A stretch of DNA of 45,823 bases from NCBI GenBank assembly GCA_964247135.1, contig CAXTTL010000003.1, positions 1 through 45,823 on the forward strand. Reading direction: 5' to 3'. Under the pieces are notes generated by a model that was not told where the DNA came from, did not search any database, and saw only the letters and a list, made by a program, of their open reading frames with translations. This document shows positions 2 to 41,561 of the stretch, piece by piece. Source of the stretch: an uncultured Deinococcales bacterium (GTDB lineage Bacteria > Deinococcota > Deinococci > Deinococcales > JAAFIG01). Within the stretch, counting starts at the first letter, position 1; every line of letters begins with the position of its first letter. Position numbers and translations under genes: made by a program.

Positions 2-1669
2 GGTTGTATCCTAAACTTGATAATCAATAATAATCACTGTGGTCATGCACTAGAATTTGGTGAGACGACTCAAGCCAAATCTATAATTGAAAAATCTTTT
101 CCCCAAATACGAACCCTAAATCAAAACGTAAATTTTCTCAATGTACTTGGCTTGACTGCCTATTATGCTGGGGATAGTCAAGAAGCCGCTCTCCTGTTTA
201 CTCAGATGCTCGATTTATTGCAAAGGAGTTCTGACCTCCGATTAAAAACGGTGGCACTTTACAATCGAAGTTTGGCTCGAGGACACTTGAATGACTACTT
301 TGGAAGTCTGGATGACCTTGAAACCGTGACTCGCCTTTGCGCCGAACTGGGAGACAACAAGCGATACGCACATGCTCAAGTTTTTGTTGGCAGAATACTG
401 ACAACACTTGGAGAATATGAAAGAGCCGAAGAAAAACTGGTGTCAAGTCAAGCGATTCTCGAGCCTCTAGGGTCGTCAAGTGCGCTGCTTGATTGCGTAC
501 GAAGCTTAAGTTCACTTTATTGCGATTGGCAACCTCCTTACGGCGGCACCCTGGCAATAAAATATGCGTCCATGGCTTTGCAGTATGCTCGATTTTTACA
601 AACCCCTTCAAAAGTCGCAATGGGTTTGTATGACTCGGCAATAGCGCAAGTTGTATTCGGTAATGCCGCTCATGGTTTGGAATTTGCTTTGGAAATGTTG
701 GAGCTGGCGCAATCGACCAAGCAACCAGAACTAATTCATTGTGCATATTTTTCGCAAGCGCTTTCTCTTAGTGCAATCCACCAACCAACCAAGGCGCTTG
801 CGGTTTTTGAACAGGCATTGGGTGTAGTGAAAGAACCACTACAGCAACATTTAACTGGTCTTGAAATGGCTCGACTCACCAACGATCTTGAGCGTGCCCA
901 AATCTCTCTTGCTTGGTTTAAAGATCACAATTTAATGAACGGTGTCAACATCGCACTCCGTTACTTTCCAGAACTCAAAGCCGAATCCCATCAAACACCA
1001 ACCACTCCAACATCAGAATCCATTCCGCAGCTCGAGGTGCTTGGTTCAATGCAAACCAGTCTCGAGTCCCAGATCACACCTGTGCGCGGTCGCAAACGCC
1101 AAGAACTTCTGGCACTCTTGCTCGAGGCTCGAATCTCTGGGCGCAACGAAGTTTCCAAACTCGAGCTTGCCGATAAACTGTATCCAGACACCGACGAAAT
1201 TCAAGCCAACGCGGGCTTGCGTGATGTGATTTACCAAATCCGCTCGAGCCTCGCTGAAACGGCGATCACCACCACCGCAAACGGTTACGCGCTGGGCGGT
1301 TTGAAGACGGATGTCGAAACCTTTTTACAGACTGGCAACACCAAACTTTGGCGCGGCGTGTACCTGGAAGGTCTGACGCTCGAAACTTCGGACACGGTGC
1401 GCGAAAGTCTTTATCTGGCACTCCGAACCCGTGCCCAAGCCTTGCTCGAGACTGATCCGCTCGAGGTGATTCGGATTGGTCGCTTGCTGTGCGAAGCTGA
1501 CCCTTACGATCTCGAGGCGCTGCGTTTGACGGTGATGGGTTTGCGGGCGGGACAAAATCACCGCAGCCTATCGCGGTTTTACGGGTCTGCCCGAACGAGG
1601 TTTCTCGAGATTGGTGAAGAACTGCCTGAAACCTGGCAGGAATTTCTTGCACCTGTTACGAGCGACTGA
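2..1669 (+). CDS. TPR protein with C-terminal SARP-like wHTH/BTAD module (5'-truncated by window edge); paralog of 31506..34646 and 35022..38144
   Basis: Frame is open from the window start. TPR-like helices are followed by motifs shared with the two paralogs: LYCDWQPPYGG-LAxKY, RYFPEL, LEVLGSMQ, RGRKRQELLALLLEARISG, TTANGYALG, LWRGVYL, EADPYDLE. Confidence 0.85.
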   Translation, partial: GCILNLIINNNHCGHALEFGETTQAKSIIEKSFPQIRTLNQNVNFLNVLGLTAYYAGDSQEAALLFTQMLDLLQRSSDLRLKTVALYNRSLARGHLNDYFGSLDDLETVTRLCAELGDNKRYAHAQVFVGRILTTLGEYERAEEKLVSSQAILEPLGSSSALLDCVRSLSSLYCDWQPPYGGTLAIKYASMALQYARFLQTPSKVAMGLYDSAIAQVVFGNAAHGLEFALEMLELAQSTKQPELIHCAYFSQALSLSAIHQPTKALAVFEQALGVVKEPLQQHLTGLEMARLTNDLERAQISLAWFKDHNLMNGVNIALRYFPELKAESHQTPTTPTSESIPQLEVLGSMQTSLESQITPVRGRKRQELLALLLEARISGRNEVSKLELADKLYPDTDEIQANAGLRDVIYQIRSSLAETAITTTANGYALGGLKTDVETFLQTGNTKLWRGVYLEGLTLETSDTVRESLYLALRTRAQALLETDPLEVIRIGRLLCEADPYDLEALRLTVMGLRAGQNHRSLSRFYGSARTRFLEIGEELPETWQEFLAPVTSD

Positions 1670-4031
1670 CGCGCACTTTTTCTGGGGTCAGGGCATACTC
1701 GAGGGCTTCGGAGTGGGTCATGGCACGACCACTGATCCAGGCGAGATTCCACTCGAGATCGGGAACGCGTTTTCTGGCTTCTTCCGTCCAGTGTTCAAAC
1801 CGCTCACGGTCAACAGGTGACCATTGATAACCGTTTATTTCATAGACCGCTTCGACATTGCCCCAAAGCCTTGCCGCCCTGAGCAGGTCTGAAGTGTTGG
1901 CTTCAGGATTGACCCACGAGGCGGCGAGGTCGGCTAAGGTGTCCGTCAACATCAACCTGCGCTCCATTTTCATTCCCAAGCGAAGGGCTTCTTTTAAAAA
2001 TGTTTGTGCTGTTTTGAAATCCTTGCGCTCCAGTGAGATTTCCCCCAAAACCCTGCACAACACCGGTTCCCAAAAAAAATCTGAATGTTTTCGACAGATC
2101 GCTAAACCTTCCTGGGCAAGTGTTTGTGCCTTGGCGTAATCTCCCAATGCCAATTTGGTATCTGCCAGCAAAAACAATGCTCCACACAAATGATAAGGAC
2201 TGCGAGGGTAGTGCAACCGTTTGTCAGGACCTGCCCTCACTTGAAAGAACGAAGACTTGTCATCAATTGGTGTGGATTGCTCAACCATCAATCGGCATAA
2301 ATCAAGCGCTGGCTCGAGTGCCTCGAGTGCCTCGTGGTGTAAGCCTTGCTCGAGTGCAACTTTGCCTGCCATTTGTAACATCACCACTTCCCAGTCGATG
2401 CGCCCGATCTGGCGACTGAGGGCAAGTCCTTCGGCAATCCAAGGCGGGGTCAACTCGAAAGCGCCAGTCTGCCAAGCGTAAGTACAGCCCATGTTAAGCG
2501 TCCAAATCCGCGATTCTGGTTCTATGTCCTGGCTGAGTGCCAATGTTGCTTTTAACCATTCAAGCCCTTCGCTTGGATAACCCCTACCTTGCCAGAACCA
2601 ATCCAATGACTGAACCAAATGCAGGAGTTGTTCAATTTTTGAGCTGTCCAAAGCCCTGCGAAGTGCCGCTCGTAAATTTCCGATTTCTGTTTCGTGCCAG
2701 TTTAAATCGACTTCTTTACTTATTTGTGCTTGGGAAATTTGCAAGTAATGCTCGAGGTGCGCGTCTCGAGCCGCTTCAAGTTCTTCACTCACCCTCAGTT
2801 GCTCGAGTGCGTACTCACGCAACGTCTCGAACAGGGTGTACCGTTCGCCATCATGTTGAATCAAATGCTCGTCCAAAAGTGCGTGTAAGTCCGTCTCTCG
2901 AGCCTCACAGAGGCTCAAGGCGGCTGTGGAGTCAAAGCCACCCACAAAGACACCCACATGTCTGAAAATTCGTTTTAAACGCACCTCGAGCCGTTCGTAA
3001 CTCCAGGCAATCGCGCCTTGCAAGGTGCGTTGGCGTTCGGAGTGGTCTGATGGTCCAGCACCCAAAGCGTTTAACACCTGGGCTTTGAGTTGCGCCGCAA
3101 GTTCTTCGGGGCTGGTGTGGCGCAAACGCACCGCCGCCAACTCGAGCGCGAGTGGTAAACCTTCAAGCCGTGTGACAATCTCGGCAATGGTGCTGGCGTT
3201 CTGAGCATTCAAACTGAACTTTGGGTCAAATGCCCGAACCCGCTCGAGGAACAATTGCACGGCTGGGTTGTCCGCAACGTGTGCCAACCCAGGCAGCTTC
3301 AAAGGCTCGAGCGCCCATTCTTGCTCGCCGTACAAACGCAAGGCAGTGCGGCTGGTCACCAGCACCCGCAAATCAGCACATTGCTCGAGCAAGCCCGAAA
3401 GTGCTGGGGCGGCGGTCAGCAAATGCTCGAAGTTGTCCAACACAAGCAACAACTGTTTGTCACGCAAAAAGTTTTGCAGTCGCAAAACCCGAGATTGCAC
3501 ACCACCATCCACCAAGCCAAGCCGTCGGATCACGCTTGGCAAAACCTGGTCAGGATGATCCAGGGCTGCCAATGGCACGACATAAACCCCATCGGCAAAG
3601 TGCGGCTGCAATTCGTGTGCCAGTTGCAACGCCAGTCGGGTTTTGCCCACCCCAGGCGCTCCGATCAGGGTCAACAACCGCGTTTGAGGTTGCAACATCA
3701 AATCTTGCAACCTCGAGAGTTCAGCCTCACGCCCAATTAAAGCGGTCAACGGCAACGGAATTTGACCCGACAGTATTTTGGCAGCGCTGGAGGCTCGAGC
3801 AACTGCGGGTTTGGCTTTTGCAAGGCGCAAAAAACGCTCGAGGTCGGCTGCTTCAATCTCGAGGTGCTGCGCCAAGGCTTCCGCCACCATGGGCGAGGGA
3901 CGGCGATGACCTTCCTCAATTTTTTGAATGGTGACAGGCGCACAACCGATCAGCTTCGCCAATTTCTTCTGGGTCAACCAGAGTTCCTTGCGCCGCTCGC
4001 GTACCCAATCGCCGATGGTCGTGCCTTCCAT
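1656..4031 (-). CDS. XRE-HTH + STAND (NB-ARC-like) ATPase + TPR transcriptional regulator
   Basis: N-terminal XRE HTH (LTQKKLAKLIGCAPVTIQKIEEGHRRPS), Walker A GAPGVGKT, Walker B LLLVLDNFEH, GLPLALELAA motif, C-terminal TPRs. Confidence 0.9.
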   Translation of the reverse strand: MEGTTIGDWVRERRKELWLTQKKLAKLIGCAPVTIQKIEEGHRRPSPMVAEALAQHLEIEAADLERFLRLAKAKPAVARASSAAKILSGQIPLPLTALIGREAELSRLQDLMLQPQTRLLTLIGAPGVGKTRLALQLAHELQPHFADGVYVVPLAALDHPDQVLPSVIRRLGLVDGGVQSRVLRLQNFLRDKQLLLVLDNFEHLLTAAPALSGLLEQCADLRVLVTSRTALRLYGEQEWALEPLKLPGLAHVADNPAVQLFLERVRAFDPKFSLNAQNASTIAEIVTRLEGLPLALELAAVRLRHTSPEELAAQLKAQVLNALGAGPSDHSERQRTLQGAIAWSYERLEVRLKRIFRHVGVFVGGFDSTAALSLCEARETDLHALLDEHLIQHDGERYTLFETLREYALEQLRVSEELEAARDAHLEHYLQISQAQISKEVDLNWHETEIGNLRAALRRALDSSKIEQLLHLVQSLDWFWQGRGYPSEGLEWLKATLALSQDIEPESRIWTLNMGCTYAWQTGAFELTPPWIAEGLALSRQIGRIDWEVVMLQMAGKVALEQGLHHEALEALEPALDLCRLMVEQSTPIDDKSSFFQVRAGPDKRLHYPRSPYHLCGALFLLADTKLALGDYAKAQTLAQEGLAICRKHSDFFWEPVLCRVLGEISLERKDFKTAQTFLKEALRLGMKMERRLMLTDTLADLAASWVNPEANTSDLLRAARLWGNVEAVYEINGYQWSPVDRERFEHWTEEARKRVPDLEWNLAWISGRAMTHSEALEYALTPEKVRVSRS

Positions 4032-5912: not shown

Positions 5913-5917
5913 ATTTC

Positions 5918-5949
5918 CGACTTCCATCTGACCGAGCCTGCTGTAAGGT
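5918..5949 (+). promoter_or_regulatory. Direct-repeat box CGACT-N6-TGACC followed after 10 nt by -10-like TAAGGT
   Basis: Conserved geometry; lies upstream of RBS AGGAGG of the zinc-ribbon gene. Confidence 0.55.
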
Positions 5950-5964
5950 CTGGACAAAGGAGGC

Positions 5965-6231
5965 GTGAATCTTGTGGAAGATTCGGGGGATTTCTGGGAA
6001 GGTCGGCGACAGGCGGCGACGCTGCGTTACCGATTGTGTCCAAGTTGCTTTAGGGCGGTGCCAGCCAGCTCGAGCGAACGGTACTGCATCAACGACGGCT
6101 CGTGGTTGCTCGAGGCTTGCCCGCTGTGCAATACCAGCATCACCAACCCGTATGCCCGTTACTGCGCCACATGCGGGCTGGAATTCGCAACGCTCGAGCA
6201 AGCAAAGATTGCACCAGAGTCTCGAGCGTAG
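5965..6231 (+). CDS. Small double zinc-ribbon protein
   Basis: CPSC..C-I-N-D..CPLC..CATC; RBS AAGGAGG + GTG; paralog of 41346..41561. Confidence 0.75.
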   Translation: MNLVEDSGDFWEGRRQAATLRYRLCPSCFRAVPASSSERYCINDGSWLLEACPLCNTSITNPYARYCATCGLEFATLEQAKIAPESRA

Positions 6232-25953: not shown

Positions 25954-28887
25954 ATGCTTCGGCTACTCGGCACACCGCGCTTTGAAGGCACCCAAACCGG
26001 CGAACTCTCGCTCGAGCGACCGCTGTGGTTGGTGGCGTTCCTGGCGGCTCGAGAAACCTGGGTGTCGCGCGAAGAATTGGTCTTGCTGTTCTGGTCCGAA
26101 GCCGATGAGGCGTCGGGGCGCCAGAGTTTACGTCAATTGCTCTACCGCGCCAGAAGTTTGGTCTTTGGGCAACACCTCGAGACTGAGACGCTGCGGGTAC
26201 GTTACAACGGCGCGAGTGACATTGCCCTGTTTAAAAAAGCCTTGCATCTTCAGGATTGGGCGGCGGCGCTCGAGTTGTACACGGCTGAGTTTTTGCTGAA
26301 CATCAACCCTGCGGGTTCGCTCGAGTTTGAATCCTGGCTCGAGTTTGAACGCGAGGAATTGCAATCGGGTTGGCGCAACGCGGTCTTGCAACGGGCGGCG
26401 CAACTGGAAGGCTTGAACGAATTTGTGGCGGGTTTTCAATGCCTGGACACCGCGTTAAAGCACGATCCTTTAAACGATGAATTCGTGCGTGCCATGCTGA
26501 AATTGGCGAGGAGTGCCAAACTCGAGCAGGTCGGTTTGAGTATTTTTGAACGCTTCGGGCGCGAGTTTAAACACGTGCTCGAGCTGGACGTGCCAGAGGA
26601 CATTCGTGAATTGGCTTCCAATTTGCGCACCGGTTTGAACCCCTTGCCAATTGCTGAGAATACCTTGCCGCGCGAAGCCAAAACATTGTCAAGCCAGAAC
26701 AGCCTGCCCATCAACATGACGGCTTTCGTCGGGCGGCAAAACGAGTTGCTCGAGGTGCGAAAGCGTGTCCTTGACCCAGAATGTCGCCTGCTGACTTTGG
26801 TTGGCGCGGGCGGAATTGGCAAAACCCGTTTGGCGCTCGAGGTCGCCAGGCAATCGGAAAACGAATTTCGAGATGGCGTGATCTTCGTTTCACTCGCGCC
26901 ACTCGAGAATCCGGCGCTGCTTGAAGCCACGATTCTTGAGGCGCTCGGTTTGAAAATTGCCGGTGATAAGGCGCAACAACAACTCATTGAAAACCTGCGC
27001 GACAAAAACTTGCTGTTGGTGCTCGACAATTTCGAGCACCTTCTCGAAGTCAGCAATGTGGTCAGCATCATCCTCGAGCACGCCCTGGGTGTCCGGGTGC
27101 TCGCCACCAGCCGCGAAGCGCTGGGCTTGCGCGGCGAATGGGTGATCGAACTCGAGGGGCTGCCGAGTCCAGACCATTTCAGTGCGCTGGAAAGCCAAGA
27201 CGCCGCCAACCTCTTTGGCACCAGCGCCCGCCGCGTCAACAGCGCTTTTAAGCTCGAGCTTGGCGACCTGCCAGATTTTTCGCGCATCTGCAAAGCCGTG
27301 GCGGGAATGCCGCTCGGACTCGAGATCGCCTCGAGTTGGACGCGCGTTTTGTCCTTGGGCGAGATTGCCGAGGAACTCGAGCGCGACCCCGATTCGCTCG
27401 AGATTTCATCGCGCGACCTGCCAATGCGGCAACGCAGCCTGCGGGCGGTGTTTGAACATTCCTGGAATTTACTGCGCCCCGTTGAGCAAGCCATTCTGGC
27501 ACGGTTGTCGGTCTTCAGGGGCGGTTTTGACCGCGATGCTGCGCTGGAAGTTGCTGGGGCGCGACTGCCGAGTTTGCTGGCGTTGGTGCAAAAATCCTTG
27601 GTGCAAAAAAATCCCGAAAAACGTTTTGAACTTCACAGCATCGTGCGCCAATATTCTGAACGTAAACTCGAGGTTGGCGAGCGTCAGGGCACCCTGGCAA
27701 AACACGCTCAGTATTACCTCAAAAACCTCGAGCAGGCGGGGCGCGGTCTGGTCGGACCGCAAATGCAACTCGTGCTTGAAGCCATCAACCTCGAGCATGA
27801 CAACTTTCGCGCCGCGCTCGAGTTTGGACTTCAATTCGACCCCGTTGGCGGCGCAAAAATGTGTCACAACCTCGAATCGTTCTGGTATGTGCGCGGGCAT
27901 CATACCGAAGGGCTAACCTGGGCGAAACGTTACCTCGAGCATCCAGATTTGCAGCAACCCGACGCCACCCGCGTCAAAATTCTGTTTTGCGCCTCGAGCC
28001 TGTCCAAAGAACTCGGCTATTACCAGGACGCAAGGGCTTGGAGTTTGGAACGCCTGATGCTCTGTCAACAACTGGGTGATGCGGCGGGTGAAGCCAAGAC
28101 CGAGCGCTTTTTGGGCGTGCTCGCCCGCGAACAAGGGAACCTCGCCGAAGCCCGCGAGCGCCTGGAACGCGCCGTGGCGCAAAGCCAAGACCTGAACGAG
28201 CCGATGGAACACTCGATAGCTTATAACGACCTTGGCATCGTGTATGCCTACCAAGACGAGCCTTTAAAAGCCCAAGATTGCTTTCAAAAAAGCCTGTCCA
28301 TCAAACGCGAGCTGGGCGACCAGCAAGGCATCGCCTACGCTCTGGGCAACCTCGCGCAGATCGCTTTTGAGCTGGGCAATATTGAGCACGCGCACCATAT
28401 CGAACTCGAGAGTCTGGCGTTAAAACGCGAACTGGGCGACCTGCAAGGCATCGCCAACTCGCTCGCCAATTTGGGTCAAAACGCCCTGAACGACAACGAT
28501 TACGACCAAGCCAGAAGTTACTTCGATGAAAGCCTGAGCATTTTACGCAGTCTCGGCAGGCGCTTTACCATCGGCGAGCTGTTCCAAAGTTACGTCGAAC
28601 TGGCACGGCGCGAAGGGCAATTTGAACGCAGCGTGCGCTTGATTGGCGCGATCCGCAACCTGGACCGCAGCCTCGGGGCGCAAATCAGACCCGAAAAACA
28701 AGAAAAACACGAACGTATTCTGAACGAGGCTCGAGCGCACCTGGACAACCCCAAGCTCGAGCAAGTGAAATCTGAGGGCGAGAACGCCAATCTGGACACC
28801 ATGATCGCTTACGCCCTGCGCGAACCCGAGATCAAACAACGCCGCTCGAGCGAGGTGAGAGCTGGTGTCAGCCCACTGATCGGTTGA
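25954..28887 (+). CDS. SARP-type regulator: N-terminal wHTH + BTAD, STAND ATPase, TPRs
   Basis: LRLLGTP, REELVLLFW, LRQLLYR; GAGGIGKT; LLVLDNFEH; GMPLGLEIA; C-terminal TPRs. Confidence 0.92.
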   Translation: MLRLLGTPRFEGTQTGELSLERPLWLVAFLAARETWVSREELVLLFWSEADEASGRQSLRQLLYRARSLVFGQHLETETLRVRYNGASDIALFKKALHLQDWAAALELYTAEFLLNINPAGSLEFESWLEFEREELQSGWRNAVLQRAAQLEGLNEFVAGFQCLDTALKHDPLNDEFVRAMLKLARSAKLEQVGLSIFERFGREFKHVLELDVPEDIRELASNLRTGLNPLPIAENTLPREAKTLSSQNSLPINMTAFVGRQNELLEVRKRVLDPECRLLTLVGAGGIGKTRLALEVARQSENEFRDGVIFVSLAPLENPALLEATILEALGLKIAGDKAQQQLIENLRDKNLLLVLDNFEHLLEVSNVVSIILEHALGVRVLATSREALGLRGEWVIELEGLPSPDHFSALESQDAANLFGTSARRVNSAFKLELGDLPDFSRICKAVAGMPLGLEIASSWTRVLSLGEIAEELERDPDSLEISSRDLPMRQRSLRAVFEHSWNLLRPVEQAILARLSVFRGGFDRDAALEVAGARLPSLLALVQKSLVQKNPEKRFELHSIVRQYSERKLEVGERQGTLAKHAQYYLKNLEQAGRGLVGPQMQLVLEAINLEHDNFRAALEFGLQFDPVGGAKMCHNLESFWYVRGHHTEGLTWAKRYLEHPDLQQPDATRVKILFCASSLSKELGYYQDARAWSLERLMLCQQLGDAAGEAKTERFLGVLAREQGNLAEARERLERAVAQSQDLNEPMEHSIAYNDLGIVYAYQDEPLKAQDCFQKSLSIKRELGDQQGIAYALGNLAQIAFELGNIEHAHHIELESLALKRELGDLQGIANSLANLGQNALNDNDYDQARSYFDESLSILRSLGRRFTIGELFQSYVELARREGQFERSVRLIGAIRNLDRSLGAQIRPEKQEKHERILNEARAHLDNPKLEQVKSEGENANLDTMIAYALREPEIKQRRSSEVRAGVSPLIG

Positions 28888-30669: not shown

Positions 30670-30744
30670 CCAACCCAAGTCCAACTCGAGAAGGTAGGTG
30701 TGGTGGCTTCTTCTTGATCCCAAGACGCACCTGACGGGCGGGAT

Positions 30745-31487
30745 CGCTACCAACTCAAAAACGGTTGCAATTGGAATGACCTACCCAGGGATTTACCACC
30801 GTACTCCACGGTGTACTGGCATTACAAACAATGGCGAGATGATGGTACGCTCGAGATCATCCTGCAAAAATTGCATGAATTGGTACGGCTCAAAGCTCAA
30901 AAAAACCGAAGTGGACGAGGTTGATGCTGGTTGACTCTCAAGCCGTGAAGAACACTTGCAATGCCAGTATTGAAAGCAAAGGCTTTTGTCATTACAAAGC
31001 CACGAATGGGATCAAACGACATTTGGCAGTGGATACGCTCGGATTTCCTTTTTTCACGCACTGTACGAAAGCGAGTGTGTCTGACGATCAAGGATTGATT
31101 CAAATGTTCGAGAAGAACATCGAGTATTTCAAAAGCAAACCTGTGAACATTGCCAAGATCACGATTTTGTTGGATTACGGATATCACTTGGAAACGATCA
31201 AAGCTGGGCTGGTCAAGGTTTATCCAAGTATTTTGAGTAAGGTTCGTTTTGAGCAGTCTGAAAAGCCTTCAAAGGCTCAGAAGCGAGCCTTGGGAAAATC
31301 TGGGTTTGTGCCTGCGAAATGGCGTTGGGTGATTGAACGGTCGAATGCTTGGGTGGAGCGGTGCAAGAGCTTGGTCAAGAACTTCGAGTGGAGTCTGGCG
31401 AATGCGACGGCGAAATTGAATTTGTGTTTTATTCGGTTGATGTTGAAGCGCTTGGCAGCATCATGAAAAGATACCAAATAGGTTCTA
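30745..31487 (+). mobile_element. 5'-truncated IS5-family element (two ORFs joined by -1 frameshift)
   Basis: orfA remnant YQLKNGCNWNDLPRDLPPYSTVYWHYKQW; A7 slippery site 30899-30905; orfB DSQAVKN, KRHLAVDTLG, RWVIERSNAW; putative right end ..ATACCAAATAGGTTCTA; no left end. Confidence 0.85.
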
Positions 31488-31505
31488 TAGCAGGTGTCCT
31501 TGTGT

Positions 31506-34500
31506 ATGATTCAACTTAAGACATCGCAAATTAAGGGGGGCAACCTGAGCATCACGACACGCGAAAGTATCACCCTGATCGGTCAGCGCCTTCGCGGCTT
31601 AAAAACGCCCCGTAAAGGTGTCGTGCTGGGCTTGTGGGGCGAAGCTGGCATTGGTAAAACTTGGACGCTCGAGCGAATCTTGCAATCCACGGGTTTTGGG
31701 CATGTCAAAGTGAATATCAACATTCCACTTGCCGCTTTGATTCGTGTCCTGCCGCGTCCAAAACGTTTACCGATCTGGGCGCAGCGTTTGCTCGAGAAGC
31801 TGGAACGAGGCGAGCATGTTGCCACCTCGAGTATTTCCGATGCCCTTGGCGCGTTGCTGAGGGCGCAAGCGCCGATGATCTTGTGCTTTGAAGATTTACA
31901 CGAAGCCAGCCCAGAACGCCTCGAGTTGCTGCTTGCACTCTCGCAACTTGTGTTGCGTTCCGCTGGTGTGGCGATTGTTGTCACCAGCCGAAACGCACCA
32001 CCCGAACCTTTTGAGGCGTTCAAACTCGAGCCGTTGACCAGTGCCGAATCCAAAGCCCTGCTCGAGACTCAGATCAATGCCGATTTACCACTTCAGACAA
32101 GCGATTGGATTTATGCGCGAGCGAGAGGCAATCCGCTTTTCACGCTCGAGTTTTTGCGGTTTCTGACCCGAGACGGTTACGTCTGGGGCGATGGCAGTCG
32201 CTGGCATTGGCGCGTGCCACCCGATGACTTGATGCCCGTGACGGTCGAGGCGTTGATTGAACATCTGCTCGATCAATCCGTGCATTCGGGGATGGTACAA
32301 GATGCGCTCGAGGCAAAGGCTTTGCTTGGTTTGGGTGTAACGCAGCAACTTTGGGCACAGGTAGCAGGGTTGACGCTCGAGGCTTTGCTGGCAGCTCAAC
32401 ACGAACTCGAGCAACACAACTTGCTGGTCAACCTCGAGTTTGCCCATCCGTTGTTTGCCGAAGTGACCCTAAAGAGATTGACGCTCGAGCGCAGTCAGGT
32501 TTTGGCGAGACGAGGATTGCTTGCCTTGCAGGATGATCCGATAGCGGCGGCTGGGTTTGTGGAAAACGCTGGACTCGAGCCAGAAATGGCATTGGCATGG
32601 TTGAAACGGGCGGTAGAAAGCGCGAAAGCGCAGGGCAACGAGGTGCAAGCTGCACAATTTCAAGCTCGAGGGGTGGTGTTTGCCATTGGCGAGGAACGGG
32701 GTCGTTTGGCATTTGAGGCGGTGCAGCATTTACAACATGTGGATTTACCAGAAGCTTCACGTTTGGCAGACATTGCCCTCGAGCTTCACCCGCATGACAA
32801 GGAAACAATTTTGCTGCGTGCCAGCTTGTTTGCCACCTTGGGGCAAGGTGCCCAGGTGGATCGTGTGCTCGAACGACTGCCAGACAGTGAAAAAAGCGGC
32901 AGCGATTGGCTGGGCGTGCGCATACGAATGCGCATGGGGCAACACGATGTGGTCGGCGTCTTGAAAATTTGTCAGGAACACCCTGAACTCTTTGAGTCCA
33001 CCAAACCAGAAATCTGTAACAACATCGGCTGGGCATTGACAAGTTGCGGTGAGAGCGAACGTGCCCGCAGCTTGGTGCAACGTGTCTTGGCGCAACCCGA
33101 CTTGACGCTCGAGCAATCCGTGCGACTCACCAATCTGGCTGCGGTGGTCTGCGACAATTTGGGAGACTTGGATGCAGCCCAAGCGTATTGCACCCAAGCC
33201 ATCAGCCTGGCACACCAGGCTGGGCGCTTGCACAGCGCGGCGGTGGCACATTTCAACCGAGCACTCGCCAGACAAAAAAATGGTTTCTATCAGGATGTCG
33301 TCCCCGACGTGCAAGAAGCCCTGAACCTGTGGGGACAGTTGGGCGATGCCAGGGGCTGCGCCCAAGCTCAGGTGGTTCTGGCGCAAGAACTGATGCGGGT
33401 CGCCGAGTATGAACGCGCCGAGGAATTGCTGCTCGAGGCGAGGCGCACCCTTGAACAGATTGGCAACGCATCGCGGCAGATTGATCTTGCAAACGTGCTG
33501 TGCTTGTTGTACCTGGATTGGCAAACACCGCACAGCCACATGCTGGCACTGAAGTACGTGCAGTCGGCGTTGGCAGCGGCTCGAGTGCATGGCAATCCCG
33601 TCTTGCTGGTACGAACCCTCGCCTGTGCCGCGTTGGTGTATGCCCTGACCGGTCAGGGGCGGCGCGGGCTTGAGTTGATTGATGAAATGAAAGCGCTGCT
33701 GCCATCAATCGATCACAACCGACTCGAGAGCGAAGCGCTGTTTGCCGAAGCATCAACGCTCGAGGCAGTGGGACGCCGTGATGAAGCGATTTTGTTGTTT
33801 GGTCGGTCGGTGCAAGCACCGAGTGGGGTGGAAAGCCAGCAATTGCATGAACTCGAGTTGGATCGGCTGACCCAAGACCTCGAGCGTGCTCGGGTGCGGC
33901 TGGCGTGGTTTGAAGCGCGAGGCTTGAAAAGCGCTGCGAATCGAGTTCGGCGGTACTTCCCCGAACTCGATGCTGTACCCAGCCGCGAAGTGGAAACGTC
34001 CGGCTTGCGGCTCGAGGTGCTTGGCGTCATGCAAATTGTGGACGCCAGTGGACCCAAAGCCATGCGCGGTCAAAAACGCAAAGAATTGCTGGCGTACTTG
34101 CTCGAGGCACGCATTGGCGGACGAAACGAAGTGCGGGTTTTCGAGTTGCTCGAGTTTTTATATCCCGAAGTTTCACCCGATGAAGCCGCCGATTCGCTCA
34201 AGCAACTCGTGTTTCAAATCCGCTCGGGTTTTGGTGCGTCGGTCATCCTCACCACGGGCAACGGTTACGCGCTCGGCGCCATCGGTTCGGACGCAGAACT
34301 TTTTCTCGAGCATTCAGATACCAGTTTGTGGCGCGGCGCGTACTTGTCCGATGTTGGACAGGGGCGCGACGAGAATGTGCGCGAGGCACTGTATCAGGCA
34401 CTCCGCTCGAGCATCGCCGCAACTTTGGAGCGCGAACCGAAAGAAGCCATCCGTGTTGGGAAAATTCTGTGCGAGGCTGAGCCTTATGATCTCGAGGCAC

Positions 34501-34646
34501 TCGCCCTGACCTTGCGGGCGTTTCGCGCCAATGGCGATCACCGAGGACTCTCGAGGTTGTTCGGCATTGCCCGTTCGCGCCTGCTCGAGGTTGCTGAGGT
34601 GCTGCCCGAACGTTGGCAAGATTTTCTGGCGGCACAATCGGCATAA
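31506..34646 (+). CDS. STAND ATPase-TPR regulator with C-terminal SARP-like wHTH/BTAD (start uncertain: 31494, 31506 or CTG 31545)
   Basis: Walker A GEAGIGKT, Walker B LCFEDLH, GNPLF, FAHPLF, TPRs, C-terminal module shared with paralogs. Confidence 0.88.
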   Translation: MIQLKTSQIKGGNLSITTRESITLIGQRLRGLKTPRKGVVLGLWGEAGIGKTWTLERILQSTGFGHVKVNINIPLAALIRVLPRPKRLPIWAQRLLEKLERGEHVATSSISDALGALLRAQAPMILCFEDLHEASPERLELLLALSQLVLRSAGVAIVVTSRNAPPEPFEAFKLEPLTSAESKALLETQINADLPLQTSDWIYARARGNPLFTLEFLRFLTRDGYVWGDGSRWHWRVPPDDLMPVTVEALIEHLLDQSVHSGMVQDALEAKALLGLGVTQQLWAQVAGLTLEALLAAQHELEQHNLLVNLEFAHPLFAEVTLKRLTLERSQVLARRGLLALQDDPIAAAGFVENAGLEPEMALAWLKRAVESAKAQGNEVQAAQFQARGVVFAIGEERGRLAFEAVQHLQHVDLPEASRLADIALELHPHDKETILLRASLFATLGQGAQVDRVLERLPDSEKSGSDWLGVRIRMRMGQHDVVGVLKICQEHPELFESTKPEICNNIGWALTSCGESERARSLVQRVLAQPDLTLEQSVRLTNLAAVVCDNLGDLDAAQAYCTQAISLAHQAGRLHSAAVAHFNRALARQKNGFYQDVVPDVQEALNLWGQLGDARGCAQAQVVLAQELMRVAEYERAEELLLEARRTLEQIGNASRQIDLANVLCLLYLDWQTPHSHMLALKYVQSALAAARVHGNPVLLVRTLACAALVYALTGQGRRGLELIDEMKALLPSIDHNRLESEALFAEASTLEAVGRRDEAILLFGRSVQAPSGVESQQLHELELDRLTQDLERARVRLAWFEARGLKSAANRVRRYFPELDAVPSREVETSGLRLEVLGVMQIVDASGPKAMRGQKRKELLAYLLEARIGGRNEVRVFELLEFLYPEVSPDEAADSLKQLVFQIRSGFGASVILTTGNGYALGAIGSDAELFLEHSDTSLWRGAYLSDVGQGRDENVREALYQALRSSIAATLEREPKEAIRVGKILCEAEPYDLEALALTLRAFRANGDHRGLSRLFGIARSRLLEVAEVLPERWQDFLAAQSA

Positions 34647-34659
34647 GTGGCGGTTTTTA

Positions 34660-34691
34660 TTACCTCGGTATGACCGGTCCTTGCGTATTGT
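34660..34691 (+). promoter_or_regulatory. TTACC-N6-TGACC direct repeat + N10 + -10-like TATTGT
   Basis: Starts 13 bp after the regulator stop; 11-bp periodic repeat. Confidence 0.6.
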
Positions 34692-34755
34692 TTAAGGGCA
34701 AGTTGAAATGCTTTGGCATCGTCAGGTCAAACAAGATCACCCTCGGGAGGAAGTC

Positions 34756-34881
34756 ATGAACAGCAAAAATCTGAAGCGCGGTTTGGTCGCAATCGTCATC
34801 GCAATGCTTTGTGTATCTGGTTTGGCGACTGCTGGTGGCATTTCAATCAAATGCGCTTATGCGCCAATTTGCAGCAACTGA
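34756..34881 (+). CDS. 41-aa secreted peptide precursor MNSKNLKRGLVAIVIAMLCVSGLATA-GGISIKCAYAPICSN
   Basis: RBS GGGAGG, basic N-region, hydrophobic core, A-T-A signal peptidase site; not in the ORF track. Confidence 0.7.
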   Translation: MNSKNLKRGLVAIVIAMLCVSGLATAGGISIKCAYAPICSN

Positions 34882-35021
34882 TCAGGCAATCTGATTGGGT
34901 ACAACCCGCAACTGCCTTGAAGCAAGACTCGAGTCGGTTGCGGGTACGTTTGTGACGACTCAAAAACCCATCAAAAGATTCAGCCGCTCGAGATGCCCTA
35001 CACTTGAGGCTGTGAGAGGAC

Positions 35022-38000
35022 ATGACCGAACTTCCAACTGGTCGCCTTGAGGGGCTGACCGCACGCTTTCGTTTGGTGCTGACCCGACGCTCGAGTTTGG
35101 CACTCGGCGTGTCTGGCGACCCTGGTGTTGGAAAATCCTTTGAGGTCAAACAACTCCTCGATTCCGTTGGCTGTCAACACTTCACCATGAACGCCAATGC
35201 GACGGTTCTCGAGTGGCTGCGTGGTTTGCCTCGACCTGACAAGCTGCCGTTTTGGGCGCTCCGTGCCGTCCAGCGACTCGAGCAAGCTGAAAGCCTCGAA
35301 ACGAGCGCCGTGTGTGCCGCCATCACGAGCTTGCTGCTTGCCCTGTCTCCAGTGGTTTGGGTACTCGAGGATGTACATGAAGCCGATTCAGATCGGCTTG
35401 GGTTCCTTGGCGACTTGGCTCGAGCCGTCAAACGCACGCGGGGCATCGCTTTGGTTTTGACCAGTCGAGTCGCGCTGCCCGAACCTTTCGAGGTATTTCA
35501 ACTCCAGGCGCTTTCGTCCAAAACCTCCAAAACATTGCTCGAACAAACCCTGGGCGCTCCAGTACCATCCCAGACCGCCGTTTGGATTGAGGCTCGAGCT
35601 TGCGGCAACCCGTTGTTTGCACTCGAGTACCTGCGTTACCTGGCGCGAACGGGTCACCTCTGGAGTGATGGTCAGGCGTGGCATTGGCGTGAACCACCCG
35701 AAAGCACCATGCCCGCCACCATTGAGGCATTGATCGAACGGCTGCTCGAGCAAGCCAAGAACGCCGTGGGTCAAGAGGCGCTTGAAGCGGCGGCAGTCTT
35801 GCTGCCCAAAACGCCAGCAGCAATTTGGGCGCACGTCGCAGGACTTTCCCTGGAAGCGCTTGCAGAGCAACAAACCGATCTCGAGCGTCACGGTTTGTTC
35901 AGGGCTGGTTGGTTTGCCCACCCGCTGTTTCGTGAGGTGGCGGCTCGAGGGCTTTCCTCAGAACGCCGCCGTGATCTGGCGCGTCGTGCCGTGAGCGCCC
36001 TCGAGGTCAATGACCCACAAACGGCAGCAGCCTACGTGGACACGGCTCAACTCGAGGATGAGGTTGCACTGGTGCTGCTCGAGCGGGCTGCCAAGGAAGC
36101 CCGAAATCGTGGCAATACGATTGGGGCGGCACGTTTCACCGCTCAGGCGGCAAATCGTGCGACGGGTGACACCCGTGATCGACTGGCACTCGAGGCGGCA
36201 ATTGAGCTGCAAGAAGCAGACCTTCCTTACGCTCAAAGGTTGCTCGAGCAAATCGTAATTGCTGGATCAAATGAACCTCGGGCGCTGTACTTGCTGGCTG
36301 AGTTGCTGGCACGGCAGGGTCGTGGCATTGAGGCTGAAAAAATGCTTGCACGGGTTGCCCAAGTCAACCGCGACCCGAGTGACCATATTCGGCAACAATT
36401 GCGTGTCCGAACGTTGGCACAGGATTTTGCAGGGGTGATTGCTTTGTACGAGCAACACGCAACCTTGCTCGAGACTGCCAATGCGGAACTGCTCAACCAA
36501 ATCGCATGGTCATTCTTTCTTCAAGGTGATGCCGAGCGTGCAAATACGATCATTCTCAGATCGCTCGAGAATCCTGATTTGATTGACCTCGATAAAGCCG
36601 ACCTCTCGAGTGTCCTGGCGATGCTTGAAAATGCTCGAGGCAATCAAACTCGAGCCGAAACCCTGCTAAACGATGCAATCAATGCTTACCGAGAAGCCGG
36701 TCGCAACATTGCATTGAGCGAAACCTTGTACAATCGCGCCCGTGCCCATCACAGCGCAGGGCGTTACCGCGATGCCATGACCGACCTCGAACAGGCGGCA
36801 CAACTCGAGGCAGAGCGCGGTGACGGACATGCACAAGCCATCACCCAAATTTTTATGGCGGAATTGCAAACCGAATTTGGTGAGTTTGCAACAGCCGAAC
36901 AACTGTTGATCGCCGCCAAAGCAATCCTCGAGCATCATGGGGATTGGGCAGCGCTGGTCGCGTGTGAAGCCAACCTGTCGTTGTTGTACCGTGCCTGGGA
37001 TTCACCTTACGGTGGTGTGCTGGCGCTCAAATACGCCCAGACGGCGCTCAAACTGGCGCATCAAACAGACCAACAAATGTTGCTTTTACAGGCACTCAAG
37101 GCGGCAGCAAGCGCAGAGGCATGGTCTGCTCAGGGCACACGTGCGCTCGAGTACGCCCATCAAGCCCTCGAGATTGCAAACGCACTGGCGCAACCCAAAG
37201 CGCTCGTCTGGGCGAGGGCAACCCTGGCGCTGGCGCTCGAAAGCACTGGCGCAGCCGAACAAGCTCAAATTGAATATCAAGCTGCGATTGATCTGGCTGA
37301 ACAGATCAACTTGGGTTTTGAAGTCAACCGTTATGGTCTCGAGGTTGACCGACTGACCCACGACACGGCAAGCGCCAAACAACGACTCGATTGGTTTCAG
37401 GCTCATGGTTTGCAGCACTGTGCCAAGCTGAGCCAAAAGTATTTTCCAGAATTAAACGTTTTTGAAAACCAACCCGCCACCGCAACCTCAGTTGTCGTAC
37501 CGCGACTCGAGGTGCTGGGATCAATGCAACTGCGTCAAGACCAGACCAGCCAAGCCATTCGCGGGCACAAACGCAAAGAATTGCTGGTGCTGTTACTCGA
37601 GGCACGAATTTCTGGCAAACCCGAGATTCCACAATTCGAGTTGTGCGAAAACCTCTATCCAGAATCCAATCCTGAAGAGTCTGGGGTTTCGCTCAAACAA
37701 CTGGTCTTTCAAATTCGCTCGGGTTTTGGTCAGGCTGCCATCAGCACCACCAGCAATGGTTACGCGCTCGGTGCTTTTGATTCAGATGCCGAAGCGTTCT
37801 TGCAGTCGGGCAACAGCCAACTCTGGCGCGGAATCTACCTCGAAGATGCGGCACCCGAGCCTCGAGATGAAACGGTGAGCGACGCACTTTATGGGGCGTT
37901 GCGTTCAAAAATTGAAAGCCTCTCGCAAACCGATACCAAAGAGGCGGCGCGGCTTGGCAGAATCCTGCTCGAAGCCGAACCGTATGACCTCGAGGTGCTG

Positions 38001-38144
38001 CGGTTGTGCTTGAGCGCTTTGCGAAACGAAAAGAATCACCGCACGCTCTCGAGGGTCTATGCCAGCGCTTGCACGCGAATGCTCGAGGTTGGTGAAGTGC
38101 TACCGAGCGATTGGCAAGCATTCTTAAAACCTTCAACGGCATAA
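35022..38144 (+). CDS. STAND ATPase-TPR regulator with C-terminal SARP-like wHTH/BTAD
   Basis: GDPGVGKS, WVLEDVH, GNPLF, FAHPLF, TPRs, conserved C-terminal module; RBS GAGAGGA. Confidence 0.9.
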   Translation: MTELPTGRLEGLTARFRLVLTRRSSLALGVSGDPGVGKSFEVKQLLDSVGCQHFTMNANATVLEWLRGLPRPDKLPFWALRAVQRLEQAESLETSAVCAAITSLLLALSPVVWVLEDVHEADSDRLGFLGDLARAVKRTRGIALVLTSRVALPEPFEVFQLQALSSKTSKTLLEQTLGAPVPSQTAVWIEARACGNPLFALEYLRYLARTGHLWSDGQAWHWREPPESTMPATIEALIERLLEQAKNAVGQEALEAAAVLLPKTPAAIWAHVAGLSLEALAEQQTDLERHGLFRAGWFAHPLFREVAARGLSSERRRDLARRAVSALEVNDPQTAAAYVDTAQLEDEVALVLLERAAKEARNRGNTIGAARFTAQAANRATGDTRDRLALEAAIELQEADLPYAQRLLEQIVIAGSNEPRALYLLAELLARQGRGIEAEKMLARVAQVNRDPSDHIRQQLRVRTLAQDFAGVIALYEQHATLLETANAELLNQIAWSFFLQGDAERANTIILRSLENPDLIDLDKADLSSVLAMLENARGNQTRAETLLNDAINAYREAGRNIALSETLYNRARAHHSAGRYRDAMTDLEQAAQLEAERGDGHAQAITQIFMAELQTEFGEFATAEQLLIAAKAILEHHGDWAALVACEANLSLLYRAWDSPYGGVLALKYAQTALKLAHQTDQQMLLLQALKAAASAEAWSAQGTRALEYAHQALEIANALAQPKALVWARATLALALESTGAAEQAQIEYQAAIDLAEQINLGFEVNRYGLEVDRLTHDTASAKQRLDWFQAHGLQHCAKLSQKYFPELNVFENQPATATSVVVPRLEVLGSMQLRQDQTSQAIRGHKRKELLVLLLEARISGKPEIPQFELCENLYPESNPEESGVSLKQLVFQIRSGFGQAAISTTSNGYALGAFDSDAEAFLQSGNSQLWRGIYLEDAAPEPRDETVSDALYGALRSKIESLSQTDTKEAARLGRILLEAEPYDLEVLRLCLSALRNEKNHRTLSRVYASACTRMLEVGEVLPSDWQAFLKPSTA

Positions 38145-38157
38145 ACAGCCCGAACCC

Positions 38158-38189
38158 TAACCGAGGTGTTACCACCGTTGGCGCAAACT
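38158..38189 (+). promoter_or_regulatory. TAACC-N6-TTACC direct repeat + N10 + -10-like CAAACT
   Basis: Starts 13 bp after the regulator stop, identical geometry to 34660. Confidence 0.6.
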
Positions 38190-38461
38190 TTGCGCAGTCG
38201 GGTTCAGGTTCAGATGTCGCTTGAATTGCTTGTCATTCACTCGAGTTTTCGGGGTGACGGGCGGGTGATGGCTTGATCCAAACTTGTCCCAAGAAGGAGG
38301 AATTCATGAAATTTGTTTTGATAATCGGATGTTAGTTGCAGCGCAGAAACCTCACCACCGCAAAACCCAAACTCGCGCACTGTGTCTGACGAAAGAGGTA
38401 CGTGGGTTTGGCAGAAGAGCAGGTTTCACTTCATTCAGGGGATTCCCAAGGAGGTATTTGG

Positions 38462-39361
38462 ATGGCGAACATCGTTGCGGGAAACGCATTGGCGCTCAGG
38501 TGTCTGGGCAACGTCGAGGGACCACGCTTCTTGGATGGCAGAACAGGAGATGGGTCTGTGGGTCTCGCGCCGAGTACCGACCTACCCTTTACGGGAACGC
38601 GCTGGGTCGCGGTTGATGAGGGCATCGCGGGTCAGGTCATCCTAAAATGCCTTGGTGACGTTGATGGTCCGAGGTTCCTGAACGGTCGAACTGTCTCCGG
38701 TGAGGTGGATTTGGTGCCCAGCACCAAGCCGCCGTTTTCGGGAACCCGATGGGCGGTGATGGACGATGGTCAAACTGGAACCACGCTGAAATGCCTGGGA
38801 GACCTCGACGGTTTACGGTTCCTTGATGGCAGAACCCGTGATGGTTCAGTGGGTCTCGCACCTGGCACGGAGCCTCCGTTTACCGGAACACACTGGGAGG
38901 TAATCGACCTGGGTCGTTTGGGGTTCGTGAATTACGATTCGGGACCGATCACTTCGGGTCTGCCGCTCGGAGGCTCCGTCCACGTCACCCTGGCAAGCAA
39001 TGGTAGCTTCACGTTCTCGTCGCACGCGCACGATTCGGGTATTGACAATATCGATTACACGATCTCCGCCGTCCTGATGGCTCCAACCGGTGTGGCTTTC
39101 ACTTTTCAGCACGCGGGTCATGTCGAGGGAACTGTTGCAGGTCTGCCGTTCGGAACCCCAAACCGCAACGACGAGTTCACGACGGGCGGAACGAACGCGC
39201 TCATCAGCGATAATTGGGCGGGACTCGTCGGCGGCGTCCTTCTGGCGAGGCTCGATGGGCGAGACACGACCGCCGCTGCAATCGGCGATCTCCTGGGGCA
39301 GGTCGCCGCCGAGGTGGGCAAAGCCGCCGCCACACAAGCCATCGCCTTGGTGTTCGGCTGA
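38462..39361 (+). CDS. Protein with three ~51-aa repeats (beta-trefoil/fascin-like) and a C-terminal domain
   Basis: 3x LxCLGxxxGxRFL(D/N)GRTxxGxVxLxPxTxxPF(T/S)GTxW; RBS AAGGAGG before ATG 38462. Confidence 0.8.
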   Translation: MANIVAGNALALRCLGNVEGPRFLDGRTGDGSVGLAPSTDLPFTGTRWVAVDEGIAGQVILKCLGDVDGPRFLNGRTVSGEVDLVPSTKPPFSGTRWAVMDDGQTGTTLKCLGDLDGLRFLDGRTRDGSVGLAPGTEPPFTGTHWEVIDLGRLGFVNYDSGPITSGLPLGGSVHVTLASNGSFTFSSHAHDSGIDNIDYTISAVLMAPTGVAFTFQHAGHVEGTVAGLPFGTPNRNDEFTTGGTNALISDNWAGLVGGVLLARLDGRDTTAAAIGDLLGQVAAEVGKAAATQAIALVFG

Positions 39362-41097: not shown

Positions 41098-41176
41098 TCC
41101 GAAGACTTTGAATCAACGGAAGTATTCTTGTCCACCGTTTGTACAGCTCGGGGAGCGGCACAAATCGCTCGAGGGC

Positions 41177-41208
41177 TAACCGAAATATCACCAGGCTTGC
41201 GGCACGAT
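41177..41208 (+). promoter_or_regulatory. TAACC-N6-TCACC direct repeat + N10 + -10-like CACGAT
   Basis: Same geometry as 34660 and 38158. Confidence 0.55.
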
Positions 41209-41229
41209 AAGGACACGAGGAGGTCTTTC

Positions 41230-41313
41230 ATGAACACGTTTTTAGCAAACCAAAAAGCGGGCATCGGAAGCTCGAGGTTGACGTGCAAAGCGAAACGGGT
41301 CACCAGAACTTAA
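41230..41313 (+). CDS. Putative 27-aa peptide MNTFLANQKAGIGSSRLTCKAKRVTRT
   Basis: Perfect RBS GAGGAGG directly behind the conserved promoter box; function unknown. Confidence 0.35.
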   Translation: MNTFLANQKAGIGSSRLTCKAKRVTRT

Positions 41314-41345
41314 ACCGTGAAACTCGAGGGGGAGGAGTCGCGCCC

Positions 41346-41561
41346 ATGTCTGAATTGCTGGTCAAGTACCGCCTGTGTCCGGTTTGTTACCGTGCCGTGC
41401 CTGCCGCATTGGACGAAAAATTCTGCCCGAACGACGGCACCAAAATGCTCGAGGTTTGTCCGAAATGCAAGACGCCGATCACCTCGCCGTATGCACGGTA
41501 TTGCGTGAAATGCGGGACAGATTTTGGTCAAAAACCAAAATTGAACGCGCAAGTCAAATAA
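41346..41561 (+). CDS. Small double zinc-ribbon protein
   Basis: CPVC..CPND..CPKC..CVKC; RBS GGAGGAG; paralog of 5965..6231. Confidence 0.8.
   Translation: MSELLVKYRLCPVCYRAVPAALDEKFCPNDGTKMLEVCPKCKTPITSPYARYCVKCGTDFGQKPKLNAQVK

Follow-up and report, generated by a model that had tools for sequence, protein, structure and literature searches.

We analyzed a 45,823-nt stretch of DNA from an uncultured Deinococcales bacterium (contig CAXTTL010000003.1 of assembly GCA_964247135.1, forward strand; hereafter the window), focusing on two tandem genes for large regulators, Reg1 and Reg2, and on the short regions directly downstream of them. The window represents contig C3 of a 5.09-Mb genome assembly, which comprises 386 contigs and is 84% complete. 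Reg1 (31494..34646, + strand) starts with a GTG codon at 31494, with an ATG in frame at 31506, and is followed by a direct-repeat element, Box1 (34658..34693, +), and by a 41-codon open reading frame (ORF; 34756..34881, +). Reg2 (35022..38144, +), a paralog of identical architecture, is followed by a second element of this kind, Box2 (38156..38191, +), and by a mini-ORF of nine codons. The original prediction, which was based on the DNA sequence, interpreted this arrangement as a peptide-signaling system in which TPR-containing receptors sense small secreted peptides encoded next to them, in analogy to the RRNPP systems of other bacteria.

In Reg1, a STAND-type nucleoside triphosphatase (NTPase) is encoded by positions ~31506-32525 and a helical/TPR sensor by positions ~32538-33971, followed by a flexible linker and a C-terminal SARP module (~34008-34643; all on the + strand). 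Reg1 and Reg2 show 42% identity across 1028 aligned residues, with values of 44% in the ATPase (residues 1-340), 32% in the TPR middle (341-830) and 55% in the C-terminal module (831-1050), in line with the earlier suggestion that the two terminal modules are conserved while the middle parts have diverged. Pfam detects AAA_16 and TPR repeats in both proteins, whose Walker A motifs read GEAGIGKT in Reg1 and GDPGVGKS in Reg2; Reg1 additionally contains the Walker-B-like sequence MILCFEDLH. A profile of 28 C-terminal modules, taken from the same and from related genomes, matched AfsR (2.9e-8) and EmbR (1.5e-4) among the PDB sequences. Similarly, an AlphaFold2 model of the C-terminal module of Reg1 (predicted local distance difference test score, pLDDT, 94.3) yielded six Foldseek matches with E <= 0.001, all of them chains of AfsR (6e-8 to 5e-7) or EmbR (1e-5 to 3e-5), and the alignments obtained (~245 columns) extend across the winged helix as well as the BTAD domain. 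By profile as well as by fold, the module thus displays an OmpR-type winged helix directly before a BTAD domain, as is characteristic of SARPs. The model of full-length Reg1, based on a 43-sequence alignment, reached a pLDDT of 88.3, with a low-confidence linker (residues 823-831) preceding the SARP module. By fold, this model is most similar to the STAND/TPR protein PH0952 (PDB 6mfv; E 1.6e-12 over 727 columns), with Avs3 (4e-9) and, lower in the list, Apaf-1 (3e-6) as further matches. Walker motifs, AAA_16 matches and fold together reveal the P-loop NTPase, the helical/winged-helix parts and the repeat sensor typical of STAND proteins. The SARP module, by contrast, does not occupy the N-terminal position associated with this class but follows the NTPase and the TPR region, comprising residues ~835-1046 of 1046. 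As judged from profiles and predicted structures, Reg1 and Reg2 are therefore STAND NTPases equipped with a TPR sensor and, at the C-terminus, a SARP module, and combine the part order of MalT/LAL proteins with the DNA-binding module of AfsR. The tandem STAND-TPR-winged-helix/BTAD architecture proposed for them originally is thus upheld by both profile searches and fold matches.

Box1 is composed of the heptamers TATTACC (34658-34664) and TATGACC (34669-34675), separated by the spacer tcgg and followed, after 10 nt, by the -10-like sequence TATTGT (34686-34691). The corresponding elements of Box2 are CCTAACC (38156-38162), gagg, TGTTACC (38167-38173) and, again after 10 nt, CAAACT (38184-38189). 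A plain alignment of the two intergenic regions revealed no common block, and the box was visible only as an 11-nt direct repeat. However, a survey of the DNA downstream of the stop codons of 88 family members (see below) identified the two sites as instances of a single motif, in agreement with the earlier claim that each regulator is followed by a box of this type. In a motif-free test, 7-mer self-matches (>=6/7) at an offset of 11 nt were detected in the first 130 nt of 32/88 flanks, as compared to 4-16 of the 88 flanks at other offsets between 7 and 20 and to 12/83 at the same offset in a control region 500 nt further on. An iterated position weight matrix recovered the motif in 34/88 flanks, representing 32 distinct sequence clusters, with the consensus y-n-T-R-A-C-C, 4 nt, y-n-T-R-A-C-C, 10 nt, y-A-n-n-n-T; this count is a lower bound, since the scan began at the stop codon, so that boxes overlapping it were lost, and nine loci with a zinc-ribbon gene (see below) were scored as box-less. 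Nineteen of the 34 boxes begin <=18 nt from the stop codon. Among 25 sites picked by their repeats alone, the pattern A-N3-T was present at the fixed -10 position in 23, as opposed to 0-5 at 12 other offsets. Box1 and Box2 score 21.1 and 21.6 and thus both belong to the 14 sites in the genome that reach a value of >=21, whereas each of five shuffled genomes contained 0-2 such sites. At a threshold of >=17, there are 26 sites in the genome and 4-11 in the shuffles. A weaker box-like site at 38350..38385 (+; score 17.5; -10-like sequence CACTGT at 38378-38383), which lies ahead of the gene at 38462, is uncertain for this reason.

When written as TRACCnn, the heptamers are 11 bp apart, corresponding to one helical turn, and the 3' repeat ends 8 bp ahead of the -10 hexamer. 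The available part of PMC10936776 describes the same geometry for AfsR, with direct repeats spaced 11 bp, no -35 and a weak -10 that lies 8 bp from the 3' repeat. As a general rule for SARP promoters, it gives a repeat spacing of 11 or 22 bp and, again, a distance of 8 bp between the 3' repeat and the -10. A consensus scan of positions 34600-35100 detected no sigma-70 -35/-10 pair, as expected for an activator-dependent promoter. Considering its sequence and statistics, we regard the box as a genuine operator/promoter of the SARP type.

A link between regulators and boxes is further indicated by their co-variation. For the 34 box-bearing loci, the C-terminal modules were aligned, and the 14 heptamer positions were compared with 16 recognition-helix columns around SLKQLVFQIRSGFG. 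The distance between boxes correlates with that between recognition helices (r 0.39), also when the rest of the module is taken into account (partial r 0.386), and 0/2000 permutations gave a value as high. The remaining part of the module shows hardly any such correlation (r 0.08, partial -0.02), and it is this contrast that is informative, because the kinship of the 34 loci causes the permutation figure to overstate significance. The co-variation provides indirect support for a putative activation through the repeats, and each regulator probably binds the box adjoining it. The recognition helices of Reg1 and Reg2 are almost identical, and the TTACC heptamer is found, among the 34 boxes, solely at the loci of these two regulators, where it forms the 5' repeat of Box1 and the 3' repeat of Box2. 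It is therefore likely that the two proteins cross-talk at both boxes.

Reg1 and Reg2 share three kinds of module with AfsR and the other large SARPs of Streptomyces, which contain a SARP, an NB-ARC/NOD and a TPR part, and the likeness of the SARP module extends to both sequence profile and fold. AfsR activates a small ORF, afsS, which adjoins afsR, through a 22-bp box consisting of two 11-bp repeats, and both the box geometry and the adjacency observed here fit this scheme; however, AfsS is not known to have a Sec-like leader, whereas the peptide encoded in the window has one. Moreover, the NTPase of Reg1 and Reg2 is of the AAA_16/MalT-PH0952 rather than the NB-ARC kind, the heptamer contains TRACC instead of the TCGAG-type sequence of Streptomyces, and the host is a member of the Deinococcales instead of an actinomycete. 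The most conspicuous difference lies in the domain order, because the SARP module is located at the C-terminus, behind the sensor. In this respect, the two proteins resemble MalT/LAL proteins such as PH0952, which show the same order of NTPase, arm, TPR-like sensor and C-terminal DNA-binding effector. PH0952 is both the best match to the whole protein by fold and a match by profile (4e-13), but MalT carries a helix-turn-helix (HTH) effector of the LuxR type in place of the SARP module. The small, medium, large and SARP-LAL classes described in the available part of PMC10972967 all carry the SARP domain at their N-terminus, and SARPs are treated there as actinomycete regulators of antibiotic synthesis. 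Reg1 and Reg2 are best read as reversed-order "large SARPs" of the Deinococcota that activate the operon adjoining them.

The two regulators are part of an expanded family. Searches with the C-terminal module returned seven places in the genome containing the window and matches in 25/40 relatives examined, including 18/18 genomes of the same, uncultured GTDB family, with 1-16 matches per genome in the latter (1-14 in genomes with a contamination of <5%), nearly all of them in open frames of ~1030-1050 codons. Since these relatives are kin, counts across family members are not independent. A search of 5.8 billion proteins yielded 119 clusters with a typical length of ~1010-1110 residues, apart from a few proteins of 620-986 residues and one distant match of 964 residues. 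Carriers with species or genus names include Calidithermus roseus, C. timidus, Meiothermus sp., Deinococcus navajonensis and, on a plasmid, D. psychrotolerans. The names given to these proteins in databases are all automatic (tetratricopeptide repeat protein, AAA family ATPase and, in some entries from JGI, "DNA-binding SARP family transcriptional activator"). Our literature searches, which did not cover every spelling of the name, turned up no paper on a C-terminal-SARP or STAND-TPR-SARP architecture; the "SARP domain" in the available part of PMC1274311 is an unrelated eukaryotic family. The proposal of an architecturally distinct STAND family with a C-terminal winged-helix/BTAD module in the Deinococcota thus holds, and the family is indeed expanded, but its second part, peptide sensing as the underlying logic, is not supported (see below).

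A second expanded STAND family in the same genome shows the part order of AfsR, with a weak N-terminal BTAD match (E 6e-4), NB-ARC and TPR; one example is located at 25954..28887 (+), and there are ~20 tblastn matches in the genome. The NCBIfam model for AfsR gives a partial match to this family (1.9e-22), which is far under the cut-off. Some of the boxes that lie away from C-terminal-SARP regulators in the genome may belong to it. At the left end of the window, two STAND regulator genes converge. The one at 2..1669 (+) encodes the C-terminal 555 residues of a further C-terminal-SARP paralog, which has no box because the convergent gene comes next; the latter (1656..4031, -) encodes a protein with HTH_3, NB-ARC and TPR parts.

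The genes found behind the regulators point to a varied set of targets. The most common one encodes a cytoplasmic double-zinc-ribbon protein of 66-92 residues. Its motif, CxxC..CxNDG..CxxC..CxxCG, occurs on the same strand within <=700 nt in 24/88 flanks, 15 of which have a scored box, and the gene is usually followed by one for a lipoprotein or by genes for Ig-like/propeller proteins. Other first genes code for a 136-residue protein, an O-methyltransferase-like protein, a WD40 protein, lipoproteins, an Xaa-Pro peptidase-like protein or another regulator. The window itself contains two further boxes that are followed by a double-zinc-ribbon gene, both on the + strand and neither with a regulator directly upstream: a box at 5916-5951 (score 24.7) ahead of a gene at 5965-6231 (Pfam DZR, 4.2e-6) and a box at 41175-41210 (score 28.1) ahead of a gene at 41283-41561 (Pfam DZR, 3.3e-8). 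Downstream of the second gene, Pfam identifies PKD/Ig-like (PKD/Big_9) and NHL-propeller proteins. The double-zinc-ribbon proteins could possibly serve as co-factors or feedback partners of the regulators.

Small secreted products, on the other hand, are rare at these positions. We applied a rule-based screen for ORFs of 20-75 codons with a Shine-Dalgarno sequence and a signal-peptide-like start, located <=450 nt downstream in the 88 flanks. An ORF of this kind was the first gene in 1/88 flanks, which was that of Reg1, and was present within 450 nt in 2/88, with none in the opposite-strand control. The second case, at locus L019 (G011:C1), is an ORF of 43 codons ~312 nt past the regulator stop, which follows a zinc-ribbon gene and specifies a lipoprotein-like product with the leader end LLTAC; it is not similar to the peptide of the window. 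The original prediction had stated in advance that a lack of secreted small ORFs downstream of homologous regulators would refute it, and since most homologs indeed lack them, peptide sensing is not supported as the general logic of the family.

Downstream of Reg2, the situation is different from that originally envisaged. The box and a strong ribosome-binding site (AAGGAGG, 38294-38300) are present as described, but the short hydrophobic ORF behind them (38306..38335, +; stop codon at 38333-38335) has nine codons, specifying MKFVLIIGC, and is too short to encode a Sec-dependent pre-peptide. We also considered whether it might be left over from a gene for a lipoprotein or a zinc-ribbon protein, but no such similarity was apparent by eye in the three frames of 38196-38460. 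The first sizeable target of Reg2 is likely the adjacent gene at 38462..39361 (+). Its product, a 299-residue protein without signal peptide, is built from about six repeats (LKCLGDVDGPRFLDGRT...) with a length of 48 residues; searches of Pfam, NCBIfam, the PDB sequences and the ESM Atlas returned nothing similar.

The small ORF downstream of Box1 corresponds exactly to the translation given in the original prediction. It is preceded by the Shine-Dalgarno sequence GGGAGG (34745..34750, +), 5 nt upstream of the start, and encodes a putative Sec-like leader (residues 1-26) ending in A-T-A, as called by n-, h- and c-region rules, followed by a 15-residue tail with a C-x5-C motif. In the 18 other family genomes, no homolog of the peptide was detected at E values below 0.3. 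Searches of Pfam, NCBIfam and the ESM Atlas were likewise without a match, and no relatives of greater length were found. The 5.8 billion proteins contained a single relative, P0002, with 78% identity, whose DNA was not found in two metagenome scans. Counted from the shared MNSK start, it differs in 10/41 residues but retains both cysteines, the mature start GGIS, the sequence YAPIC and an A-D-A motif at positions -3/-1. A third allele, whose DNA is ~92% identical, is present on contigs of the sequencing runs X2-X4 from one study, including a 5020-nt contig that spans 34400-35100. In this variant, the listed changes in Box1 are confined to the 4-nt spacer (34666, 34668), and a G>A exchange at 34745 converts the Shine-Dalgarno sequence from GGGAGG to AGGAGG. 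The ORF shows three synonymous changes (codons 6, 24 and 31), the substitutions V14I, T25L, A34S, S40G and N41M, and a TAA in place of the TGA stop codon. All three alleles thus preserve both cysteines, the AxA motif, the length and the stop, with small residues at positions -3/-1 and a variable position -2 (T, D or L); the differences between the peptides lie mainly at mature position 8 and in the last two residues. Gene callers place the start at an in-frame ATG at 34708, giving a 57-residue form. However, because this codon is located just ~9 nt past the predicted transcription start and the additional region is more divergent (8 changes in 48 nt in the variant), we take 34756 as the start. 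The ORF is followed by a hairpin (34904..34945, +) with a weak U tail, which may act as a terminator or attenuator before reg2; the surrounding 88 nt (34878-34965) have a folding energy of -34.5 kcal/mol (z -3.9), which was matched by 0/200 shuffles.

The order of a TPR protein, a nearby operator and a gene for a ~40-residue pre-peptide of the Sec type is reminiscent of RRNPP systems (Rap/Phr, PlcR/PapR, NprR/NprX, AimR/AimP). RRNPP receptors have an N-terminal HTH or phosphatase output and no NTPase, whereas Reg1 and Reg2 possess a STAND NTPase, have their SARP output at the C-terminus and are therefore not members of this group; the presence of a pre-peptide gene next to the receptor is, in addition, not a trait of their family, as shown by the above screen. 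Their TPR profile does match Rap105, NprR and RapJ (6.3e-10 to 1.5e-8), but no better than it matches many unrelated TPR proteins. When the sensor of Reg1 (500 residues; alignment of 22 rows) was modeled in complex with the 41-residue pre-peptide, the score was 0.00, which is not used as evidence in either direction.

The sensor of Reg1 has a history of its own. A single contig of 9465 nt encodes orthologs of both Reg1 (P0004, 57% identity) and Reg2 (P0006, 62%). In a comparison made in steps of 50 residues, the identity between Reg2 and P0006 is 44-82% over the entire length. For Reg1 and P0004, in contrast, the values are high in the NTPase (56-88%) and in the SARP part (59-78%), whereas the sensor (~400-800) drops to the family background of 30-40%. 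Since the sensor falls to background while both ends are well conserved, it has been replaced in Reg1 by a lineage-specific one. The sensor of P0004 has relatives at 75-76% identity (P0005, P0007), whereas that of Reg1 has none above 34% among the database matches or in the 18 family genomes. This exchanged sensor is encoded next to a near-orphan peptide gene, which, although a single case, is the sole observation beyond the gene layout that favors signaling. Directly upstream of Reg1 there is a DDE transposase fragment of 181 codons (30921..31466, +; PF01609, 1.6e-9), and the G+C content drops to 46-47% at 29000-31000, as compared to ~55%; these features may be related to a rearrangement that brought the foreign sensor into Reg1.

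Collectively, these findings lead us to a model that we consider probable, if by some distance not certain. Reg1 and Reg2 would act as cytoplasmic one-component sensors of the STAND class, in which the binding of a ligand to the TPR sensor would free the NTPase switch. Two neighboring SARP modules could then occupy the two TRACC heptamers, which are spaced by one helical turn and substitute for the missing -35 element, and recruit RNA polymerase to the -10 sequence 8 nt downstream. With its own box a few nucleotides past its stop codon, each regulator would thus switch on the unit directly downstream. The Reg1 unit would open with the 41-residue pre-peptide as an exported product, which would probably be cut after A-T-A by signal peptidase I, releasing a 15-residue peptide that could close a disulfide loop through its C-x5-C motif, and transcription may continue past the hairpin into reg2. 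The Reg2 unit would comprise a leader with the nine-codon mini-ORF, followed by a cluster of genes for repeat, Ig-like and beta-propeller proteins. The peptide would accordingly represent an output of the system, an additional role as its input being unlikely.

Several observations weigh against this model. The AAA_16 scores of Reg1 and Reg2 (30.7 and 32.5 bits) fall just short of the cut-off (32.6), the sole Pfam match to the last 220 residues of Reg1 is a sub-threshold hit to BTAD (E 0.008), and the Pfam BTAD model reaches E <= 0.1 in 6/28 C-terminal modules. The weight matrix finds no box in 54/88 flanks, and its scores in the genome scan are slightly circular, as the flanks used for training include five from the same genome. 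Within the peptide ORF of the third allele, there are 11 listed changes per 126 nt, with five residue changes, compared to 56-57 per 701 nt in the flanks, not counting 20 further differences that are not listed; since the divergence of the ORF is no lower than that of its surroundings, purifying selection is not demonstrated. Finally, the hairpin at 34904-34945 lacks a U tract and is not called by a consensus terminator scan.

An alternative is a cascade in which the real target of Box1 is reg2, while the 41- and 9-codon ORFs are functionless upstream ORFs in leader regions and the hairpin is an attenuator. Reg2 starts 140 nt past the peptide ORF on the same strand, with no promoter-like site ahead of it in a consensus scan, and tandem regulators exist elsewhere in the family (e.g., at locus L046, where one regulator follows another); the absence of a U tract from the hairpin and the similar nucleotide divergence of the ORF and its flanks would also be in keeping with this idea. 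However, the n/h/c leader, both cysteines, the AxA motif and the stop are maintained in the three alleles, and the Shine-Dalgarno sequence is either kept or improved, which exceeds the needs of a leader ORF and makes the cascade unlikely. The same set of alleles bears on the possibility that the product stays uncleaved, as a single-pass small membrane protein in N-in/C-out orientation with a 15-residue tail on the outside. Its hydrophobic stretch, GLVAIVIAMLCVSGL, would be long enough to span the membrane, but invariant small residues in an A-x-A arrangement at positions -3/-1, combined with a variable position -2, are the signature of signal peptidase I, so that we consider this fate highly improbable.

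Another alternative is an RRNPP-like autoinducing loop, in which the pre-peptide would be secreted, processed and re-imported to bind the TPR sensor of Reg1 or Reg2 and thus activate its own promoter in a positive feedback. The layout of the locus, with a TPR receptor, a box and a ~40-residue Sec-type pre-peptide, is that of PlcR/PapR-type pairs, the alleles of the peptide vary mainly in the mature part (position 8 and the last two residues), and a lineage-specific sensor is encoded beside a near-orphan peptide. Nevertheless, this coincidence of sensor and peptide has been seen once (n = 1), small secreted ORFs are exceptional among the flanks, and peptide homologs were not found in the 18 other family genomes. 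The usual cargo consists of a zinc-ribbon and a lipoprotein gene, implying that the ligands of the family are generally something else. In addition, the regulators have neither a signal peptide nor a membrane segment, so that the exported peptide, which may be closed by a disulfide, would have to be re-imported, and there is no oligopeptide permease in the window. We therefore judge an autoinducing loop of this type to be quite unlikely. It is likewise very unlikely, in our estimation, that the pre-peptide is a secreted autoinducer whose receptor is either Reg1, through its exchanged, lineage-specific TPR sensor, or Reg2, with the peptide gene under the control of the receptor's own SARP box. 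If true, however, a STAND/SARP receptor would for the first time be seen to sense a peptide, and the Deinococcota would gain their first circuit for peptide quorum sensing, with allele-specific tails acting as "pherotypes".

A further property of the window concerns the palindrome CTCGAG, which occurs at 303 sites in the 45,823 nt (e.g., 276, 458 and 1031), as compared to 8.7 +/- 2.8 sites (maximum 17) in dinucleotide shuffles. With a spacing of about one per 151 nt, it is found in both genic and intergenic regions, and by eye it is also frequent in the loci of relatives. Cyanobacteria contain a hyper-abundant palindrome, HIP1, and CTCGAG looks like an element of that kind. It includes TCGAG, the classical heptamer core of Streptomyces SARPs, which we take to be a coincidence.

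Returning to the model of ligand-gated STAND regulators that switch on the adjoining operon, the family described here places the SARP module and the promoter geometry known from actinomycetes at the tail of MalT-like STAND sensors, outside that group. Because each regulator lies beside its own operator and its recognition helix tracks the heptamer, the family provides a ready-made collection of natural protein-DNA specificity pairs. The set of boxes also maps a regulon of secreted and surface proteins. Moreover, with its very diverse sensors, at least one of which has been exchanged between orthologs, the family is well suited for studying how STAND sensors gain new ligands. The small peptide encoded downstream of Reg1 represents the one case in which an output of such a system could also be its input.

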